Of a stretch of DNA of 45,476 bases, positions 15,123 through 30,395 are shown one piece after another. The notes below the pieces were generated by a model. That model was not told the origin of the DNA. It did no database searches and worked only from the letters and a program-made list of their open reading frames with translations. Position 1 is the first letter of the stretch. The number at the start of each line of letters is the position of its first letter. The position numbers were made by a program, and so were the translations under genes. The stretch lies in the sequence record PQ429079.1. The stretch is one strand, 5' to 3'. Origin of the DNA: Escherichia phage vB_VIPECOTPH05A.

Positions 15123-15596
15123 ATGGAACATATAAAAGATTTTCTTAGCTATAACCGAGAAACCGGAATATTCACATGGATACAACCTACATACAGACGA
15201 GGGAAACCTGGAGACATCGCAGGATGCATCAATAGTAGTGGATACTGGCGAATACCTTATATGGGTAGATATTACATGGCCCACAGGCTCGCTTGGTTTT
15301 TCGAGTACGGTGAATGGCCCGAGGGTCCTCTTGACCACATAAACCGTGACAGGTTAGACAATAGGATTTCTAACCTAAGGAAAGCAACCACCGCAGATAA
15401 TGTGCGAAACGCTAAAAATAAGGGGGCTAGAACGGGAGTTAAGGGAGTAGTTAAAACCGGCAACCGATTTTATGGGCGGGTACATTTTAACTACAAAAGT
15501 TATAATGCGGGTAGCTACGGAACTCTTGAAGAAGCAGAAAGCGCTGTAAAGAAATTAAGAGAAAAATTGCATAAGGAATTTTATTGCCATGGCTAG
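15123..15596 (+). CDS. HNH homing endonuclease with AP2 domain
   Basis: ORF 15099..15596; likely ATG at 15123; HNH motif LDHINRDRLDNRISNLR, AP2-like C-terminus; stop overlaps polymerase start. Confidence 0.75.
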   Translation: MEHIKDFLSYNRETGIFTWIQPTYRRGKPGDIAGCINSSGYWRIPYMGRYYMAHRLAWFFEYGEWPEGPLDHINRDRLDNRISNLRKATTADNVRNAKNKGARTGVKGVVKTGNRFYGRVHFNYKSYNAGSYGTLEEAESAVKKLREKLHKEFYCHG

Positions 15597-17787
15597 TTTA
15601 TTATACCTGGATACCGAGACATTCTCCGAAGCGGACTTAAAGAAAGTCGGGTCGTATGCGTATGCGGAGCACCCAACGACAGAGGTTATAATTTGTACAT
15701 ATGCCGTTGATGATGGCCCTGTAGAAATATGGGATTGCACTTCCGAACCTGTAATGCCGATAAGCCTCTGTGTGGCTCTCCGTAATGTTATGCGTGGGCG
15801 TATGAAAATCGTGGGCCATAACTTTTTAATGTTCGACAGGCTCGTCATGAAACACTGCTGGGGCTTTGATATTCCGGTAAGCAACACCATTGATACGATG
15901 ATTTGGGCGTTTCGTCACGCGCTGCCGGGTTCACTTGATGCCTTGTGCGAAGTGTTGGGCGTATCAGCAGACAATGCGAAAGATAAACGCGGCAAGGCGC
16001 TGATTCAGCGTTTCTCTAAACCGACGCCGAAGAACTACAAAATCCGCCGTTACACTGCCGAAACGCACCCGGACGAGTGGGCGCTGTTTATCAAATACGC
16101 CGTGAGCGACATCACTGCGATGCGTGAGGTCTTCCATAAGCTGCCGCGTTGGGGTAACTCAGAGTTCGAAGACCGTGTACTGGAACTGGACCAGTTAATC
16201 AACGACCGCGGGTTTAAGGTCGACGTTGCGCTGGCAGAAGCCGCGATTGAAGCCGTGGAGAAACACAAAGCGCAGTTACAAGAAGAAACCCAACGTAAAT
16301 ACGGTGGCTCTCTTACCGGTAAAGACTTTCTGCCGATTCTGCGTGAACTGGCGCCTGCGCATCGCATCCACAACGCGCAGAAGTCTACGCTTAACGACCT
16401 GCTGGCGGACGATGATTTACCGGACGACGCCCGCGCGATTATCGAAATGCGCCTTGGAGCCGCGTCGACAGCGTCTACGAAATATAACCCGCTGCTGCTG
16501 GGACGCTCGTCGGACGACCGCCGTCGTGGTTGCTTGCAGTACGGCGGGGCGAAACGCACTCTGCGATGGGCGGGTAAAGGCTTCCAGCCGCAGAACCTGG
16601 CACGCGGGTATTATCACGATGATGAGCTGGATAAAGGCATTTCTGCGTTACTTAAGGGTCGCGCTCATCGCCGTTTTGACGTAGCCAAACTAACGGCATC
16701 GACGGTTCGTAGCTGCATCATACCGGAAGCTGGGCACAAGTTTGTCGTCGCCGATTACTCTAACGTTGAAGGCCGTGGGCTTGCGTGGCTGGCGGGAGAA
16801 GAAACTGCGCTGGATACGTTCCGTGCAGGGCTGGATATTTACTGCGTAACCGCAGGTAAGATGTTCGGCATGGACCCCGACGATATTAAGAAAAACTTCA
16901 AGGAAATCAGACAGATAGGCAAGGCTTGCGAGCTTGGCCTCGGCTATGAGGGCGGAGTCGGAGCGTTCGTTACGTTCGCCAAAAACTTAGGTCTTGACCT
17001 TATTGAGATGGCAAAAACAATGGATGGTACATTCCCTGACCACATCTGGTCAGCCACCGCGAGAGGATATGAATGGGCGCGCATCCAGGAAGCCAAGCGA
17101 CCCCCGCATCCAGGTGAAAAGGACGACAGACCATCATATATTCTGGACAAGAAAGTGTGGCGCACATGCGACGCAATCAAACGTATGTGGCGTGAGTCAC
17201 ACCCTGAAACAGTAGCGTTCTGGCGTGACCTTAAAGACGGAATTTTAGCCGCTGTTCGTAATCCTGGTCGTGAATTTTGGGCGGGGGCGCACTTGCGCAG
17301 GAATGGGGAAAGGGCCATCCGCGTATGGCGTACGGTAGAATTTGATTCGTCGGGCAGGAAGGTTCCCGGTTGGTGGCTTTGTATGGAGTTGCCGTCAGGC
17401 CGTATCCTCTCGTATCCGGGAATCGGCGTTAGCGTGACAAAGGAAACCGACGAAGACGGACGGGTAAATACGAATGTGCGAATCAAGTATCAGGGCGAAA
17501 ACCAGTTAACCCGTCAGTGGACTACCCTGCACACACACGGCGGCAAAGCCTGTGAAAACCTGGTCCAAGCGCTGTGCCGTGATTTACTTGCGTATGCGAT
17601 GATTAACGTTGAGCGCGGTGGGTACCCTATCGTACTTTCGGTACATGATGAACTGGTATGTGAAACTCCAGATACGCCCGATTACACGGTACCTGATCTG
17701 GAAAAATTAATGTGTGCGTTGCCAGAGTGGGCGGAGGGGTTCCCTCTTGTAGCGGAAGGTAGCGAAATGTACAGATATGCTAAATGA
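15589..17787 (+). CDS. DNA polymerase, family A (T7-like) with 3'-5' exonuclease domain
   Basis: Exo motif YLDTETFS; pol motif A DYSNVEGR, motif B KACELGLGYEGG, motif C VHDELV. Confidence 0.85.
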   Translation: MASLLYLDTETFSEADLKKVGSYAYAEHPTTEVIICTYAVDDGPVEIWDCTSEPVMPISLCVALRNVMRGRMKIVGHNFLMFDRLVMKHCWGFDIPVSNTIDTMIWAFRHALPGSLDALCEVLGVSADNAKDKRGKALIQRFSKPTPKNYKIRRYTAETHPDEWALFIKYAVSDITAMREVFHKLPRWGNSEFEDRVLELDQLINDRGFKVDVALAEAAIEAVEKHKAQLQEETQRKYGGSLTGKDFLPILRELAPAHRIHNAQKSTLNDLLADDDLPDDARAIIEMRLGAASTASTKYNPLLLGRSSDDRRRGCLQYGGAKRTLRWAGKGFQPQNLARGYYHDDELDKGISALLKGRAHRRFDVAKLTASTVRSCIIPEAGHKFVVADYSNVEGRGLAWLAGEETALDTFRAGLDIYCVTAGKMFGMDPDDIKKNFKEIRQIGKACELGLGYEGGVGAFVTFAKNLGLDLIEMAKTMDGTFPDHIWSATARGYEWARIQEAKRPPHPGEKDDRPSYILDKKVWRTCDAIKRMWRESHPETVAFWRDLKDGILAAVRNPGREFWAGAHLRRNGERAIRVWRTVEFDSSGRKVPGWWLCMELPSGRILSYPGIGVSVTKETDEDGRVNTNVRIKYQGENQLTRQWTTLHTHGGKACENLVQALCRDLLAYAMINVERGGYPIVLSVHDELVCETPDTPDYTVPDLEKLMCALPEWAEGFPLVAEGSEMYRYAK

Positions 17788-17802
17788 TGAGGGGTGCGTA
17801 TT

Positions 17803-18301
17803 ATGAGAGACCTAATTAATTGGCACGACCATTTTCTACTACGAACCCGACACGGGGAAGATACGATGGAAGTATTCCCCGAGACACAGTATAAACGCCG
17901 GAGACGAAGCCGGCAGCCCAAGTAAGAGGGGCTACATCTGTATCGTCGTCAGAGGGGTTAGTTACAGGGCTAATCGCATCGCGTGGGAGATGCATAACAA
18001 TGAACGTTTAGGGACTGATGATGAAGTAGACCATATAAATCACATCCGGGATGATAATCGTGCATGCAACCTTCGTAAAGTATCTCGTACTGATAACAAC
18101 CGAAACGCATCTCGGAGAAAAGATAACAAATCAGGTCTCACAGGTGTGCACTGGAACGCACGGGCGGCTAAATGGAAAGCATGTATATTTGTTGGTGGTA
18201 AACTTATATTCCTGGGCCATCATGACAATATATTTGACGCGGCTTGTGCGCGGAAATCTGCGATTATTCGCTACGTCTTTCATGAGAATCACGGAGGTTA
18301 G
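17803..18301 (+). pseudogene. HNH homing endonuclease, apparently frameshift-disrupted
   Basis: ATG at 17803 opens a 39-aa frame; the HNH body (VDHINHIRDDNRACNLR) is in the +1 frame from about 17816 to 18301 with no start codon of its own. Confidence 0.55.
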
Positions 18302-18302
18302 A

Positions 18303-18434
18303 ATGCTAAGTAAACTGATTATCGCGGTACTGGCAGGATTCGCCGCCGGTGTCTACTGCCACGAGGGGCAATACGGCATGATTGTCGCCGTATTAGGTAT
18401 GTTCATCGCAATTTATCTGTGGGTGCTGGAATGA
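18303..18434 (+). CDS. small membrane protein (43 aa)
   Basis: MLSKLIIAVLAGFAAGVYCHEGQYGMIVAVLGMFIAIYLWVLE; ATGA-coupled. Confidence 0.35.
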   Translation: MLSKLIIAVLAGFAAGVYCHEGQYGMIVAVLGMFIAIYLWVLE

Positions 18435-18516
18435 AAATTTACTGGTTCTACGAAGAAGACCGCCGAATCTGTCCGCGCTGTGGGATTGAGCATACGAAAC
18501 GCGAGGGGTGCGTGTT

Positions 18517-18669
18517 ATGACAATGCTTGTATTTTGGACGATAGTAGCCATGCTCGCACTGTTACTCGGTGCAGGAATAGCCGCGATGTTCTGTTACGGC
18601 CTGTTCTTTAAGTTTGCCGGTGTCGCCGTTCTAGGCGGGGCTTTCATTACCTGGATTCTGCGCTCATGA
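18517..18669 (+). CDS. small membrane protein (50 aa)
   Basis: MTMLVFWTIVAMLALLLGAGIAAMFCYGLFFKF...; preceded by a 29-aa CxxC peptide ORF at 18431..18520. Confidence 0.35.
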   Translation: MTMLVFWTIVAMLALLLGAGIAAMFCYGLFFKFAGVAVLGGAFITWILRS

Positions 18670-18950
18670 CTAAAGAGGGGCGCATCCAGAAATACGCAAA
18701 AGAGCGATTCGAGGCTATCGGCGGCCTCGTTCGTAAGCTCTCCTACGAAGGACGTTCCGGCGCTCCTGACCTGCTGGTAATTCTCCCCGGCGGCATAGTC
18801 TGGTTCGTCGAGGTTAAGAAAGACGAAAACACGAAGCCGGACCCGCACCAGTTACGAGAGCACGAGCGTATGCGTAAACGTGGTGCTAATGTTTTTGTCG
18901 TTGGTTCGTTCAAACAGGTTGACGACCTAATAGCGAACTATTATAGTTAG
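18666..18950 (+). CDS. VRR-NUC domain nuclease
   Basis: PD-(D/E)XK core GAPDLLVILPGG...WFVEVKKDE. Confidence 0.65.
   Translation: MTKEGRIQKYAKERFEAIGGLVRKLSYEGRSGAPDLLVILPGGIVWFVEVKKDENTKPDPHQLREHERMRKRGANVFVVGSFKQVDDLIANYYS
18919..18947 (+). promoter_or_regulatory. sigma70 consensus-like promoter (TTGACG-N17-TATAGT)
   Basis: embedded in the 3' end of the VRR-NUC gene; same architecture as promoters at 11336 and 14358. Confidence 0.5.
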
Positions 18951-18980: not shown

Positions 18981-19175
18981 ATGAAACACGAATATGACCG
19001 CAAGCCAGCACGTGACATCGTACCTGGCGACATGATTTTCAACGTTAAGACCCGCCAGCCTGTTGCCGTTGATACTGTGTTCGTCGAGTCAAACGGTAAA
19101 CTGGTTATCGAAGATGTAACAGGCAACGTTACTGCGTTCGGGCGTAAAGAGCTGGTACTCTACGTTAAGGATTGA
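18981..19175 (+). CDS. hypothetical protein
   Basis: 64-aa ORF with RBS AAGGAATTGAG. Confidence 0.45.
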   Translation: MKHEYDRKPARDIVPGDMIFNVKTRQPVAVDTVFVESNGKLVIEDVTGNVTAFGRKELVLYVKD

Positions 19176-21643
19176 ACATGTCTAAATTTATCCGTCGAGG
19201 GTACCAGAAGCTCATGACTTCGTTCATGCTGCAACACCCGCGCTGTAATATCTGGGCCAGTATGGGTAGCGGCAAGTGCCTGAAACGCGGGACTGAAGTT
19301 ATTATGTTTGACGGTACGACCAAGAAAGTAGAAGACGTCATCGTCGGTGACGTGCTTATGGGGCCGGATTCGACGCCTAGAAATGTACTGTCTCTCGGTA
19401 GAGGCCGGGAGATGATGTACGAGGTTAAACCGCGAAAAGGAGAGTCGTATACGGTCAACGAAAGCCATATATTATCCCTGCGAACTACTACAGGGATCGC
19501 AAAAGGTTCATGGCCAGATAATACCGTTTTCGACATAAGCGTCCGCGACTGGCTTAAGTTGCCGAAATATGTAACCGGACCTAATGGGTATCTTAAGGGT
19601 TGGCGGGTACCTGTCGATTTTACAAGGAAAGAGCAGGACGAGGCTTTATTGCCTCCGTACCTTATGGGGTTATGGCTGGGTGACGGTACTTCGTCGTCGG
19701 GGGCCATAACATCAGGAGAGAACGAAAAGGAAATAAGGGCTTATCTTGAGTCGTACGCAGCACGTAATGGGATGCAAATACGAAAAGAAGGACTTACATG
19801 GAGTATATCTTACGGCAACACAGGTCATAAGAAGCACGGGTTTACGCACGCGCTGAAATCGGCGGGTGTCCTGAACAATAAGCATATACCGCATAGTTAC
19901 AAATGCGGCGACCGGCGACAGCGGTTAGAATTGCTGGCGGGGCTTCTGGATAGTGATGGTTACTGCGATTTGTCTAAAGCGGGTTTTGACTGGATTTCGG
20001 TAAGCGAGCGACTTGCTGATGATTTTTGTTATCTATGCCGTTCTCTTGGTTTTGCTGCTTACAAGAAGAAAACTCGTAAGCGTTGCGCAAACACTGATGT
20101 TTGGGGTGACTACTTCCGTGTGTCGGTATCTGGCGATTTTTCTGAGGTACCTTTCGTGCGAGGACGCCACCAGAATTTACCGAAGCGTAATATTAATAAG
20201 AACGTGCTTAACGTTGGGATAGAATCCATAACCCCGGTCGGCGTAGATGATTATTTTGGCTTCACTATCGACGGTGACAGTAGGTTTTTATTGGGGGACT
20301 TCACTGTCACGCACAATACAAGCTCAACGTTGTGGGTTCTCAACCGCCTGTTCCGTAATGGGCAACTTAATGACGACGACCGCGTGTTAATCCTCGCCCC
20401 GTTGCGTGTTGCGTCTGGCACGTGGCCTGCGGAACAGGCACGTTGGGGTTTCCCGTGCCTGCGTGTCGTAGATGCAACTGGTTCAGAGAAGCGCCGCATC
20501 GCGGCGCTGGAGTCGGACGCTAACGTGGTGTGCACTAACTACGAAGTTATCGAATGGCTTATTGACTACTACGGCAAAGACGACTGGCCTTTTACAGTTA
20601 TTGTCGCCGATGAAAGCACGAAGCTGAAATCGTTTCGCAGCCGTTCAGGTGGTAGCAAGCGTGCAAAGGCGCTCAGCAAAGTGGCGTTTGGTAAGGTTAA
20701 GCGTTTTATCAACCTGACCGGTACGCCGTCACCAAACGGCCTCAAAGACTTGTGGGGGCAGAACTGGTTTATAGACGCAGGCGAGCGACTTGGTTCTTCG
20801 TACACGGCATTCACTGACCGCTGGTTTAACTCGGTGCAGAAAGGGAAGTCCGCGATGGCGCGCGAGTATCACGCACGACCGGGTGCAGATAATGAAATTC
20901 ATCAGAAGATGAAGGATATCAGTCTCACTATCGATGCCGCAGAGTGGTTCGGTTGCGAAGCGCCGATTATCGTTCCTGTTGAAATAGACCTGCCGAAGAA
21001 AGCGCGTCAGGCGTACATCGATATGGAGGAGAAGTTATTTGCGGAACTCGAGAGCGGAGAAGTCGAAGCGGCTAATGCCGCGGCGAAGACGTCGAAGTGT
21101 TTGCAGATTGCATCCGGTGCCGTATATGTGTCAGGGCCAGATGGCGAAGCAACAAAAGACTGGGAGAAAGTGCACGACACGAAACTGGATGCGCTCGAGT
21201 CGATTGTTGAGGAGTTACAGGGTGCGCCGTTACTGGTAGCCTATCAGTTTAAGCACGAACTGGAGCGTATCCTTAAGCGATTCCCGCAAGCGCAGGCGTT
21301 TGCCAAAGGCGCTAAGGGTAATAAGCAGATGGAAGCGTGGAACCGTGGGGGAATCGAAATCTTATGCGTTCACCCCGCGTCAGCGGGCCATGGTTTGAAT
21401 TTACAGGACGGTGGACATCATCTGGTATTCATATCGCAAGGCTGGAACCTTGAGCACTATTTGCAGGTTGTCGAGCGCATAGGCCCCGTACGCCAGAAAC
21501 AGGCGGGGCATGAGCGCCCGGTGTTCCTTTATCACATCGTTGCTAAAGACACGCTGGATGAGGTTGTTGCCGCGCGTACAGACGAGAAGAAATCGGTCCA
21601 GGAAGAGTTGCTTAATTACATGAAGAGACGAGGTAAGAAATGA
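19172..21643 (+). CDS. SNF2-family helicase, intein-containing
   Basis: extein has Walker A GSGK|T (split by intein), DEST box VADESTKL, LTGTPSPNGLKDLW, HPASAGHGLNLQ, Q..G...R. Confidence 0.75.
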   Translation: MNMSKFIRRGYQKLMTSFMLQHPRCNIWASMGSGKCLKRGTEVIMFDGTTKKVEDVIVGDVLMGPDSTPRNVLSLGRGREMMYEVKPRKGESYTVNESHILSLRTTTGIAKGSWPDNTVFDISVRDWLKLPKYVTGPNGYLKGWRVPVDFTRKEQDEALLPPYLMGLWLGDGTSSSGAITSGENEKEIRAYLESYAARNGMQIRKEGLTWSISYGNTGHKKHGFTHALKSAGVLNNKHIPHSYKCGDRRQRLELLAGLLDSDGYCDLSKAGFDWISVSERLADDFCYLCRSLGFAAYKKKTRKRCANTDVWGDYFRVSVSGDFSEVPFVRGRHQNLPKRNINKNVLNVGIESITPVGVDDYFGFTIDGDSRFLLGDFTVTHNTSSTLWVLNRLFRNGQLNDDDRVLILAPLRVASGTWPAEQARWGFPCLRVVDATGSEKRRIAALESDANVVCTNYEVIEWLIDYYGKDDWPFTVIVADESTKLKSFRSRSGGSKRAKALSKVAFGKVKRFINLTGTPSPNGLKDLWGQNWFIDAGERLGSSYTAFTDRWFNSVQKGKSAMAREYHARPGADNEIHQKMKDISLTIDAAEWFGCEAPIIVPVEIDLPKKARQAYIDMEEKLFAELESGEVEAANAAAKTSKCLQIASGAVYVSGPDGEATKDWEKVHDTKLDALESIVEELQGAPLLVAYQFKHELERILKRFPQAQAFAKGAKGNKQMEAWNRGGIEILCVHPASAGHGLNLQDGGHHLVFISQGWNLEHYLQVVERIGPVRQKQAGHERPVFLYHIVAKDTLDEVVAARTDEKKSVQEELLNYMKRRGKK
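19277..20317 (+). mobile_element. intein with LAGLIDADG homing endonuclease domain (347 aa)
   Basis: begins Cys (CLKRGTEVIMFDG) right after GSGK, ends ...THN followed by Thr; two LAGLIDADG-like blocks LMGLWLGDGT and LLAGLLDSDGY. Confidence 0.75.
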
Positions 21644-27586: not shown

Positions 27587-28068
27587 ATTCGTGGAAACGT
27601 TGATTGCGCGGTTCCGTAGGCTTTAAGGAAGCAATTAAGCCCGTCGCCATAACAACCATACAAATCCGGCAGATTGCTAACAAGGCACTGGTTATATTCA
27701 TCCTGGAACGGCGATTTCTCGGCGGTTGCCGTGAAGGTAATCGTCCAGTTAATGCCGTCTTCGGTGGACTCCGCGATGGTGGATGTAATTGTTACCTGGT
27801 AATCCTCAATGCCCATGCCGAAGTCGTGCGCCATCCAGAAACTTGAAGCACCACCATCGACTTTCTCAATGAACGACAGAAACGCCTGTCGCCCTAGTGC
27901 TGAGGTAATCAGGGTTACGCTTATCGGGAACACGTCGTAATACGTGTCACGGCCCTGACGCACCCCGCCACCGGCTAAATCTACACTCCAGACGTTGTTA
28001 CGTCTGGTCATTGAGTAGCCTTTTGATACCACCGGCTTAAGGCTACGTGGAAAGTATAAGTCGCTCAT
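27568..28068 (-). CDS. minor tail protein (lambda M-like)
   Basis: FLSFIEKVDGGASSFWM resembles lambda gpM ESFLEEHGGWKSFLW; follows tape measure. Confidence 0.5.
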   Translation of the reverse strand: MSDLYFPRSLKPVVSKGYSMTRRNNVWSVDLAGGGVRQGRDTYYDVFPISVTLITSALGRQAFLSFIEKVDGGASSFWMAHDFGMGIEDYQVTITSTIAESTEDGINWTITFTATAEKSPFQDEYNQCLVSNLPDLYGCYGDGLNCFLKAYGTAQSTFPRIWDPMQ

Positions 28069-30395
28069 TATTTAAACCCCGGCGCATTTCTTGTGGCCTT
28101 GCGGGCCTTGCTAATCTTACTGTTGCTGTTCTGCAAAGAGGCAGCCACCTGCTCTTCTATGATGATGCGCAAACGGCCTTCGTCATCCTGCTCGGTAGAT
28201 ACGTTGCCAATCTGACTCGATGTGTTATTTACAATGGTAACATTAGATGGGCCAGAAGAAGACCCATTTTGCCCCATAATTTCTTTCATCTGCTGCGCAG
28301 TTCGTACGCGCGATGCACCAGCAGGCATGATAACTTCTGGTTTACCGCGTTCGGCGATGGTGGAAGCCTGCCCCGCAGATAACTGACCGCCCTGTTCACG
28401 TGCGGACCTGATAGCGGAAACCTGCGCCATACCTGCCCCAACGGCAGCGGCAGCGGCTACAGGGGCCAGGAACGGGCCAACTACAGGGATAGCCGCCGTG
28501 GACTTGTATGCCTCAATAGCTGCGGTGTACGTGGCTATAGTGGCCTGTACGATAGCGAATGCCTTATACGCGCCAGAAGCCTCACCCAACGCAGACCCGA
28601 TGTTTGAGGCCATGTTGCCAAAGGCCGTTGCCGTTGCGTCGGCGCGCTTCGTAGCATACTGCTCATTGATAGCGTTAAGCGCCGCCTGATACTGTTCCTC
28701 GTTAATAAGCCCCTGTTCACGGTATTTATCTGCGACCGCCAGTTTCTGCTGTTCCTGGATGTCGAGAAGCTCAAGCTCAGCGGCGTTCTGGCCCATAATC
28801 TGAGCCATGAAGTCGTCGCCTTTCTGCTGCTTTTCCTGCTGCTCTTTTCTTTTCTTATCCAGTTCTTCCTGTCTGGCCTGCTCGGCTGTGAGCATAATTT
28901 GAGTTTTGGCGTTTTCATACTGCTGCTGGCTTATCGTTCCGGCGCGGTTGAACTCCTCCAGTTTCGCCAGTTTCTGTTCTTCTGCCGCCGTGATACGAGA
29001 AATTTCGTCTCCAGTAGTGCGGTCGACAGTAGCCAGGAAATCTTCGGCGGCTTTCTTCTGACGTTGCGCCGCCGTTTCTTCACGTTTGGCCTGCGCCGCC
29101 AGACGTTTCTCGTTCGATTTAGCCTCGCGGTCTGCCTTCGCTTTTTCGGTAGCGTCGATGCGGGCGATGTCTTGCTGCGCTTCCGCGTCACGGGCAGCGT
29201 TATACGCGGCTATCTGTTCTTTGGTGACAGCTTCACGTTTAGCGAACGCCTGCTTATCCAGTTCAGCTTGTGCCCGGATGCGCTCACGGTCGCTTAAGAT
29301 GGCAATTTGCTGATTCTTGACGATAGCTTCGTTCTGCTCCTGGAACCTCTGTGTGGTTGAGTTAACGTTACGTCCAAGATTCTTTTGGGCCTCTGCCGCC
29401 GCGTTTGCTGACTTCTCTGCGTTCTCCAGTGCCGTGGCGTTCTTATTGGCATTGTCAGTCAGGCGGATAAGTTCCGGGTTCAACTGTTTTGTGTTACCGA
29501 GCCAGTCGGTAAACACATCGGCGATACGACGGGCATTCTCGGCGGTTGGTTCTTTGTTAAACGCACTCTGCGCCGCTATCATCTCCAGCGCCTGGTCACG
29601 GTTAACTCCGAACTTACTGCTAAGCTCCGCGATATTCTGCGCCAGCATGTTGACGCCCACGATGTTACCTTCGTAAGTGCCGCCGAGTTTTTCTAACGTG
29701 TCGCCTACATCCGCACCCTTAGATACCAGTGCATCGTACTGACTAATAGCCGATGTCGTGGAGGCTTTCCACGTTTCCCACGATTCGGCATCTTCACGAA
29801 CAGCTTTAGCGGTTTGCTGTGCGATAAGGTCCGCGTTAGCCTTAGCCAGAGCAAGCTGAGTCTCCGCCGCCTCCCTACTGATTTGGGTAAGCTGGATAAG
29901 GCCGTCTGTCAGTTCGAGGGAGCCAGATGCCGTTTGCTGGAAAGTATCTTTTAACTGTTTCTGTGCGGCTTCGAGGTCTTTTGAACTGCCTTCTGCTTCG
30001 GTTAGCGATTTGTACAGTACCCCGCCAACAGCCGACGCTAGCGCGATTACCGCTCCAAGTACAGCACCCCCCGGTCCGAAGGCACCTGCAAGCTGGGAGC
30101 CTTGTTGCCCTATCGCTACGAATGCGGACGTGCCGGACTGCAACTGGACGACCATGTCCTGTACCTGGAAGCCCACCTGCCCGGCGGCGTTACGGAACTT
30201 GGCAAAACCGTCGGACGCGGCTTTAGAGGTAGCGGTGTTAACTTTATTAACATCCGGAGTTAGTTTGTTTACAGATGCGTCCGCCCGGTCTGCGGATGCC
30301 GCCATAGCGTCAAGCTGTTTGGCGGCGACGTCAGCCCCTTCAGTTTTTACTCTGGCGATTAGGGAAGCCGTATCAGCCATCTTCTCTGCCCTCAA
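28068..30395 (-). CDS. tail tape measure protein
   Basis: 775 aa, Ala/Gln/Glu-rich coiled-coil; C-terminal hydrophobic/Gly-rich region; downstream of G/GT chaperones. Confidence 0.8.
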   Translation of the reverse strand: MRAEKMADTASLIARVKTEGADVAAKQLDAMAASADRADASVNKLTPDVNKVNTATSKAASDGFAKFRNAAGQVGFQVQDMVVQLQSGTSAFVAIGQQGSQLAGAFGPGGAVLGAVIALASAVGGVLYKSLTEAEGSSKDLEAAQKQLKDTFQQTASGSLELTDGLIQLTQISREAAETQLALAKANADLIAQQTAKAVREDAESWETWKASTTSAISQYDALVSKGADVGDTLEKLGGTYEGNIVGVNMLAQNIAELSSKFGVNRDQALEMIAAQSAFNKEPTAENARRIADVFTDWLGNTKQLNPELIRLTDNANKNATALENAEKSANAAAEAQKNLGRNVNSTTQRFQEQNEAIVKNQQIAILSDRERIRAQAELDKQAFAKREAVTKEQIAAYNAARDAEAQQDIARIDATEKAKADREAKSNEKRLAAQAKREETAAQRQKKAAEDFLATVDRTTGDEISRITAAEEQKLAKLEEFNRAGTISQQQYENAKTQIMLTAEQARQEELDKKRKEQQEKQQKGDDFMAQIMGQNAAELELLDIQEQQKLAVADKYREQGLINEEQYQAALNAINEQYATKRADATATAFGNMASNIGSALGEASGAYKAFAIVQATIATYTAAIEAYKSTAAIPVVGPFLAPVAAAAAVGAGMAQVSAIRSAREQGGQLSAGQASTIAERGKPEVIMPAGASRVRTAQQMKEIMGQNGSSSGPSNVTIVNNTSSQIGNVSTEQDDEGRLRIIIEEQVAASLQNSNSKISKARKATRNAPGFK

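Follow-up and report, generated by a model that had tools for sequence, protein, structure and literature searches.

A probably inactivated free-standing HNH homing endonuclease gene, split by a one-base insertion, beside the DNA polymerase gene of Escherichia phage vB_VIPECOTPH05A

The homing endonuclease I-TevIII of phage T4 is disabled by truncation. It is discussed in PMC2790892 and exemplifies phage homing endonuclease genes that have become defunct, and the locus analysed here resembles it in three respects: a selfish nuclease sits in a phage replication-gene region, is patchily distributed among relatives and is disabled in one genome. I-TevIII is intron-encoded, whereas the gene of Escherichia phage vB_VIPECOTPH05A is intergenic, involves no intron or intein and carries a single-base frameshift at codon 11. 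The sequence at this frameshift recalls another set of described cases, in which UUU_Ynn has been characterised as especially prone to +1 slippage (PMC5009743). As in bacterial UUU_Y +1 frameshifting, for example in Yersinia YopN-TyeA, a UUU codon is followed by a pyrimidine, which here opens a rare codon, and, as with the 'savior indel' of herpesvirus thymidine kinase (PMC5009743), slippage would restore the ancestral protein. Unlike the YopN-TyeA and thymidine kinase cases, the arrangement in this phage is unconserved and is accompanied by no upstream Shine-Dalgarno-like or downstream structural stimulator that we could find. The closest counterparts of the gene itself are its orthologues in the phages vB_EcoS_XY2 (QIG59289.1) and vB_VIPECOMC04 (XHV08323.1), members of PHROG 99 whose proteins are 93-95% identical to the vB_VIPECOTPH05A HNH protein and share with it a 165-aa core, the HNH_3 motif and an AP2-like tail. 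They lie at the equivalent position, with the DNA polymerase gene on one side and a small gene of phrog_10404 on the other, and consist of one continuous open reading frame, whereas the gene of vB_VIPECOTPH05A is split.

We analysed the whole 45,476-nt stretch of record PQ429079.1 (the window) from this phage, a Kagunavirus (Guernseyvirinae) for which Escherichia phage vB_VIPECOMC04 is the nearest record (~93% identity across 85% of the first 25 kb); features of the window lie on the plus strand unless marked otherwise. Translation from ATG 17803 reads MRDLINWHDHFLLRTRHGEDTMEVFPETQYKRRRRSRQPK and defines a 5' fragment of the HNH gene in its original frame, 40 codons plus TAA (17803-17925). Its last sense codon ends at 17922, where a preliminary description of the locus had placed the end of this frame, and the TAA at 17923-17925 follows. 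Only the first 11 codons of the fragment (MRDLINWHDHF) are authentic protein, with an N-terminus identical to that of the intact orthologues; the other 29 are out of frame and begin LLRTRHGEDTMEVFPETQYKRRRRSRQPK after MRDLINWHDHF, and the zero-frame product from ATG 17803 includes DLINWHDHFLLR. The HNH body, recognised by translation, Pfam and phrog_99, continues in the +1 frame from TTC TAC TAC GAA to TAG (17834-18301). This frame is open from 17816 to the TAG at 18299-18301; it encodes ...FYYEPDTGKIRWKYSPRHS...VDHINHIRDDNRACNLR... and can also be followed as ...IFYYEPDTGKIRWKYSPRHS...VDHINHIRDDNRACNLR...HENHGG up to the TAG. The first ATG, GTG or TTG within it is ATG 17990, in agreement with the earlier observation that the body, at about 17816-18301, has no start of its own. 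The complete HNH domain set is thus not contained in a single uninterrupted frame in vB_VIPECOTPH05A, which makes this copy a disrupted member of its family (a pseudogene).

The break is a one-base insertion that converts a run of three T (the T3 allele) into a run of four (the T4 allele) at 17832-17835, between codons 10 and 12, as seen in DNA alignments, a pattern scan and the Logan contig described below. The codons at the break are CAT (17830-32), TTT (17833-35) and CTA (17836-38). vB_VIPECOTPH05A has CCATTTTCTAC at this position, while five independent relatives have CCATTTCTAC with the T3 run: vB_VIPECOMC04, vB_EcoS_XY2, an IMG/VR gut contig (ENA OYVX01000170), ERZ1643246.617 and CYGL01001533.1, all with an intact gene except CYGL01001533. 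In DNA alignments with these relatives the extra T is the sole difference that breaks the frame of the vB_VIPECOTPH05A gene, and deleting one T from the run produces a 165-aa open reading frame that is collinear with the orthologues and of the same length. A pattern accepting either T3 or T4 returned T3 only from viral and metagenome collections. The preliminary description had predicted that a single-nucleotide indel near 17830-17845 would restore a protein of about 165 aa and had pointed to intact orthologues as the comparison; that prediction holds and can now be pinned to the T run, with T3 and an intact 165-aa gene in relatives and T4 here.

The repaired 165-aa protein matches Pfam HNH_3 (PF13392) with 31.8 bits (cut-off 24.8) and phrog_99, 'HNH endonuclease', over residues 5-164 (E 2.3e-59), and since the latter match spans the break, the split arrangement cannot be put down to chance. 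The body comprises a beta-rich N-terminal region, the HNH_3 motif VDHINHIRDDNRACNLR and an AP2-like C-terminal domain, the last of which is reflected in a weak C-terminal Pfam hit to AP2. Among solved structures, a sequence search with the HNH protein returned nothing significant (best E 0.032, unrelated), along with a weak AP2 match (E 0.94), and no characterised close relative was found by sequence. In an alignment of 21 homologues reaching down to 58-65% identity, residues M1, I5, W7, F11 and Y13, which lie on both sides of the break, are invariant, and the break itself falls between two invariant residues. Because M1, I5, W7 and F11 are invariant, the 11 residues preceding the break can be regarded as real protein sequence. 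The motif residues D76, H77, N79, H80, D84, N85 and N89 are likewise invariant in the 21 homologues and are kept in vB_VIPECOTPH05A, whose VDHINHIRDDNRACNLR contains the catalytic His and Asn residues. The family is large: the cluster at 90% identity comprises 137 sequences, of which 40 were read; among 15 listed members, 14 are 165 or 171 aa long and one is 182 aa, and several of these occur on many contigs. A homologue is present in 722 phage records and is full length in 712 of them.

Flank alignments of relatives delimit the gene as a free-standing homing endonuclease cassette of 517 nt (17788-18304), situated between the stop of the DNA polymerase gene and the start of a small downstream gene. 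The DNA polymerase A gene (15589-17787, 732 aa; from the ORF list, the annotation of relatives and Pfam DNA_pol_A) ends with TGA at 17785-17787, and an alignment of the junction shows its last codons to be unlike those in phages without the cassette. On the other side lies a gene for a small hydrophobic protein (18305-18436, 43 aa; from the sequence and the annotation of relatives, where it is phrog_10404), which is intact in the two relatives checked, CYGL01001533.1 among them, and whose Shine-Dalgarno sequence GGAGG falls within the 3' end of the HNH gene. The sequence of the cassette itself contains a Shine-Dalgarno-like GAGGGG (17789-17794) 8 nt 5' of ATG 17803, and a scan of 17300-18700 for a promoter or terminator belonging to the cassette did not rise above shuffles. 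Of 76 phage records that match the surroundings of 17788-18304, only 2 cover the cassette, the remainder aligning to the flanks only. The two carriers are vB_VIPECOMC04 and vB_EcoS_XY2, in which an intact HNH endonuclease is annotated at the same place; in fBC-Eco01, which has no cassette, the DNA polymerase stop overlaps the start of the small gene. The element is therefore present patchily at one fixed locus among close relatives, and it is intergenic, equipped with its own Shine-Dalgarno sequence and ATG, and outside any intron or intein. Based on this patchy, intergenic and self-contained arrangement, we assign the cassette as a free-standing homing endonuclease gene and predict its protein to be a homing nuclease that targets the junction between polymerase and small gene in alleles lacking the cassette. 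Alignment with the cassette-less fBC-Eco01 further reveals that ATGCTAA is repeated at both cassette junctions, on the left within TATGCTAAATGA (17770-17790) and on the right within ATGCTAAGTAAACTG (18300-18320). At its end, the DNA polymerase gene encodes SEMYRYAK in carriers, compared with AEMKRYAK in fBC-Eco01. The repeats and the changed polymerase end may represent the insertion or target site and a co-conversion tract.

Pairwise dN/dS values among six alleles of the gene range from 0.02 to 0.13, which indicates purifying selection on the family and, presumably, a functional protein. The changes private to vB_VIPECOTPH05A comprise 6 synonymous and 4 non-synonymous substitutions (P71T, L82R, V155I and G158V), compared to a neutral expectation of ~79% non-synonymous (P(<=4 of 10) = 0.008). 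As these private changes are mostly synonymous, most of the divergence of the lineage appears to predate the break, which must then be recent. The G158V change (codon 158, 18274-18276) lies in RYGFHENHG at a position occupied by G in all 20 other aligned homologues, and it may be an early sign of drift or relaxed constraint after the frameshift. A frame-breaking change of another kind occurs in CYGL01001533.1, which has the T3 run at the position equivalent to 17832-17835. At ~1262-1273 of this contig an extra A (A3 to A4) gives CATATAAAATCA where the others have CATATAAATCA, and this insertion shifts the frame within the catalytic motif (VDHI|NH), while the flanks, consisting of the polymerase end and the small gene, are intact. 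On the evidence of its sequence, CYGL01001533.1 represents a second, separate disruption of the same cassette.

A one-base change in homopolymer length is the classic error type of some sequencing platforms, and the T4 allele is found in one sequencing run and nowhere else. The phage could accordingly be truly T3 with an intact gene, the fourth T being a homopolymer miscall in the consensus. Several observations make this quite unlikely. Four T make a short run for such an error, and over 561 nt, TTTT included, the Logan assembly of SRR30791125 does not differ from PQ429079.1. The Logan contig encodes the exact DNA polymerase protein of vB_VIPECOTPH05A, with no gene called between DNA polymerase and the small gene; its length of 45506 nt equals 45476 + 30 and it is rotated relative to PQ429079.1, which suggests a clean circular k-mer assembly, unlike the product of noisy reads. 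Contig and record almost certainly stem from the same reads, so that they do not amount to independent sequencing and could share a systematic miscall. In ~39 kb aligned to the genome PQ423993, a nucleotide indel scan found no other uncompensated frame-breaking indel in shared genes, the other frame-type gaps being compensated pairs, sums of three, intergenic or in a replaced gene, and a gene-by-gene check found every other annotated gene shared with PQ423993 to be full length and stop-free. (A tblastn screen of adjacent hits for frame changes, using all stop-to-stop ORFs of two relatives, gave only noise and missed even the HNH break, because its N-terminal piece is only 11 aa long.) Since the Logan TTTT agrees and no other shared gene is broken, an error-prone assembly is unlikely. 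With the insertion taken as real, one might look for a shorter active nuclease starting at the internal ATG 17990. The resulting 103-aa frame (17990-18301, from the ORF list) is the longest conventional one left in the HNH frame and keeps VDHINHIRDDNRACNLR and the AP2-like part, that is, the end of the HNH motif and the AP2-like domain, and a family of short HNH proteins, phrog_4578 (a 130-position profile), aligns to residues 60-164. This alignment begins only at profile position 18, however, and the members carry N-terminal residues that the fragment does not have. ATG 17990 is moreover the codon of an internal methionine, Met62, present in all relatives, and GGGAG abuts it with no spacer. 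The fragment scores 23.9 bits against HNH_3, below the cut-off of 24.8 and over profile positions 20-46 only, and is devoid of the conserved N-terminal 61 residues with the invariant W7, F11, Y13, W22, G43-Y44 and W61. An exact-sequence look-up of the 103-aa frame returned no record. Judged by these features it is probably not a functional product, and a truncated active nuclease made from it strikes us as extremely unlikely. We also considered and rejected a start at ATT 17819 or 17831 in the +1 frame, where the Shine-Dalgarno sequence is at least 24 nt away and ATT is in any case a very poor start codon, as well as transcriptional slippage at the T4 run, which is too short at four T given that RNA polymerase slips appreciably only on far longer runs.

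The insertion could also be real and leaky, such that some ribosomes shift by +1 and still make the wild-type 165-aa enzyme at a low level. In this scenario tRNA-Phe, positioned on UUU in the P site (17833-35) with the rare CUA in the A site, would slip to UUC (17834-36). A nuclease might need no more than this low level, which could even be advantageous if full expression were toxic. The codons at the site are CAU UUU CUA CUA CGA, the first three of which form a motif (CAU_UUU_CUA) known to be prone to +1 slippage; UUU and UUC are both read by tRNA-Phe, and UUU_C (17833-17836) is accordingly a shift-prone site that lets this tRNA re-pair while in the P site. After the slip, UAC UAC GAA... follows and gives exactly ...WHDHF-YYEPDTG..., as in the orthologues, with a trans-frame product that would span DLINWHDHFYYEPDTGK. 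In 14 large genes of the phage, CTA is used less than any other Leu codon (4.0 per 1000) and does not follow any of the 20 in-frame TTT_Y sites that these genes contain; the phage genome contains no tRNA genes. Because the slip gives the wild-type protein, CUA is rare and the phage supplies no tRNA, a trans-frame product is mechanistically plausible. The private substitutions of vB_VIPECOTPH05A, which still look selectively constrained, fit with continued expression, but a very recent break explains this pattern equally well. In the comparison with relatives, the T4 split is unique to vB_VIPECOTPH05A, 5 of 5 close relatives have T3, and the homologous proteins read (15 listed of the 137-member cluster and the homologues of 58-65% identity) are all encoded in a single frame. 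The two-frame arrangement is hence not conserved among homologues, and because the relatives all have the plain in-frame arrangement at the site, there is no sign of selection for frameshifting. In addition, the sequence just upstream of the shift site contains no Shine-Dalgarno-like stimulator, and the fold of the RNA downstream is unremarkable, no better than that of 10 among 200 shuffles (z = -1.8); without a stimulator, slippage at UUU_Y would be expected at only a few per cent or less. Overall, we hold leaky or compensatory +1 frameshifting to be unlikely, and a rescue that is functionally meaningful to be somewhat less probable still. That frameshifting is a selected, programmed event appears very unlikely, and we are equally sceptical of the idea that the extra T is a 'savior' indel through which +1 slippage keeps the exact wild-type nuclease at a strongly reduced dose; were this the case, the locus would show how, in nature, a single step can turn an ordinary gene for a toxic selfish nuclease into one whose expression depends on frameshifting.

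The HNH gene discussed so far is the second of its kind in this region. An intact first HNH gene (15123-15596, 157 aa; HNH_3 56 bits, phrog_99 E 8e-59) lies upstream of the DNA polymerase gene, with whose start it shares 8 nt, and the DNA polymerase gene is thereby flanked on both sides by homing endonuclease genes of one family. The first and the repaired second HNH protein have the PHROG 99/HNH_3 family and the architecture in common and are 37% identical over 107 residues, and the first gene is a distant paralogue of the second and not a recent duplicate. Further along, the product of an SNF2-type DNA helicase gene (19172-21643) is 823 aa long, whereas that of vB_VIPECOMC04 has 474 aa. The surplus residues lie near the N-terminus between CLKRGTEV... 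and ...VTHNT; they have matches to Hom_end_hint (E 2e-21) and LAGLIDADG_3 and resemble an intein that carries a homing endonuclease of its own. In a relative, phage fPoEco01 (MT711526.1, 27185-30283), the DNA polymerase gene measures 3099 nt, compared to 2199 nt in vB_VIPECOTPH05A, and its DNA_pol_A similarity is annotated as split between aa 373-446 and aa 950-1029; these values point to a 300-aa insertion, probably an intein, which adds to the signs that selfish elements have a hotspot in the polymerase region. vB_VIPECOTPH05A also lacks three genes of its nearest relative, PQ423993, namely a DNA methyltransferase gene (PQ423993 17999-18811), a gene for a 459-aa 'homing endonuclease' (PQ423993 43020-44399) and a third HNH gene located between the spanin genes (PQ423993 38038-38544), and the content of selfish elements differs strongly between near-identical phages. 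Elsewhere in the window, the tape-measure gene (28068-30395, minus strand) is mosaic but intact. Its 3' end of ~860 nt (28068-28931) belongs to a stretch 99.5% identical to PQ423993 DNA, the remainder being strongly diverged, and the tape-measure proteins of the two phages, compared by BLASTP without composition correction, match over their full length with 49% identity overall and an identical C-terminus. The tape-measure gene had been a candidate for a second broken gene because default BLASTP yielded a near-null match only, and was dismissed once uncorrected BLASTP aligned the full length.

Taken together, we conclude that this locus is probably a recently inactivated free-standing HNH homing endonuclease gene, a mobile cassette broken by a real one-base insertion. 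Among the three causes named in the preliminary description, a decaying homing endonuclease is thus the one retained, favoured because T3 dominates among relatives, the family is under purifying selection and a second relative has been frameshifted independently; a programmed frameshift finds no support and an assembly error is unlikely. According to this model, a PHROG 99 gene combining HNH_3 and an AP2-like domain forms a mobile cassette between the genes for DNA polymerase and the small membrane protein, and the T3 to T4 insertion has recently knocked the nuclease gene out of frame. Ribosomes starting at ATG 17803 would then make a 40-aa peptide, the last 29 residues of which are nonsense, and stop at 17925, leaving the nuclease body untranslated or translated at trace level only. 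The frameshift is consequently predicted to abolish nuclease activity, with the qualification that, owing to the +1-prone CAU_UUU_CUA site, 'inactive' may mean 'strongly down-regulated'. Loss of a selfish nuclease would cost the phage nothing and would be the expected degeneration step in the life cycle of a homing endonuclease gene. Both the kind of element and its state of decay are already well known, and the gene is an ordinary one; the mildly interesting point is that the mutation created a textbook +1-slippery context that could leak wild-type protein.

For annotation, the locus should be entered as an HNH homing endonuclease pseudogene disrupted by a frameshift, with the T4 run noted, instead of being listed as two hypothetical ORFs or left out. 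With two HNH genes, the apparent helicase intein and the probable polymerase intein of a relative, the polymerase region is crowded with selfish elements, and, together with the frameshifted copy in CYGL01001533, the gene provides a small snapshot of homing endonuclease decay in Kagunaviruses. Beyond annotation this matters little unless the improbable rescue by frameshifting is true, in which case the locus would be a useful natural example of frameshift-dependent expression arising in one mutational step.
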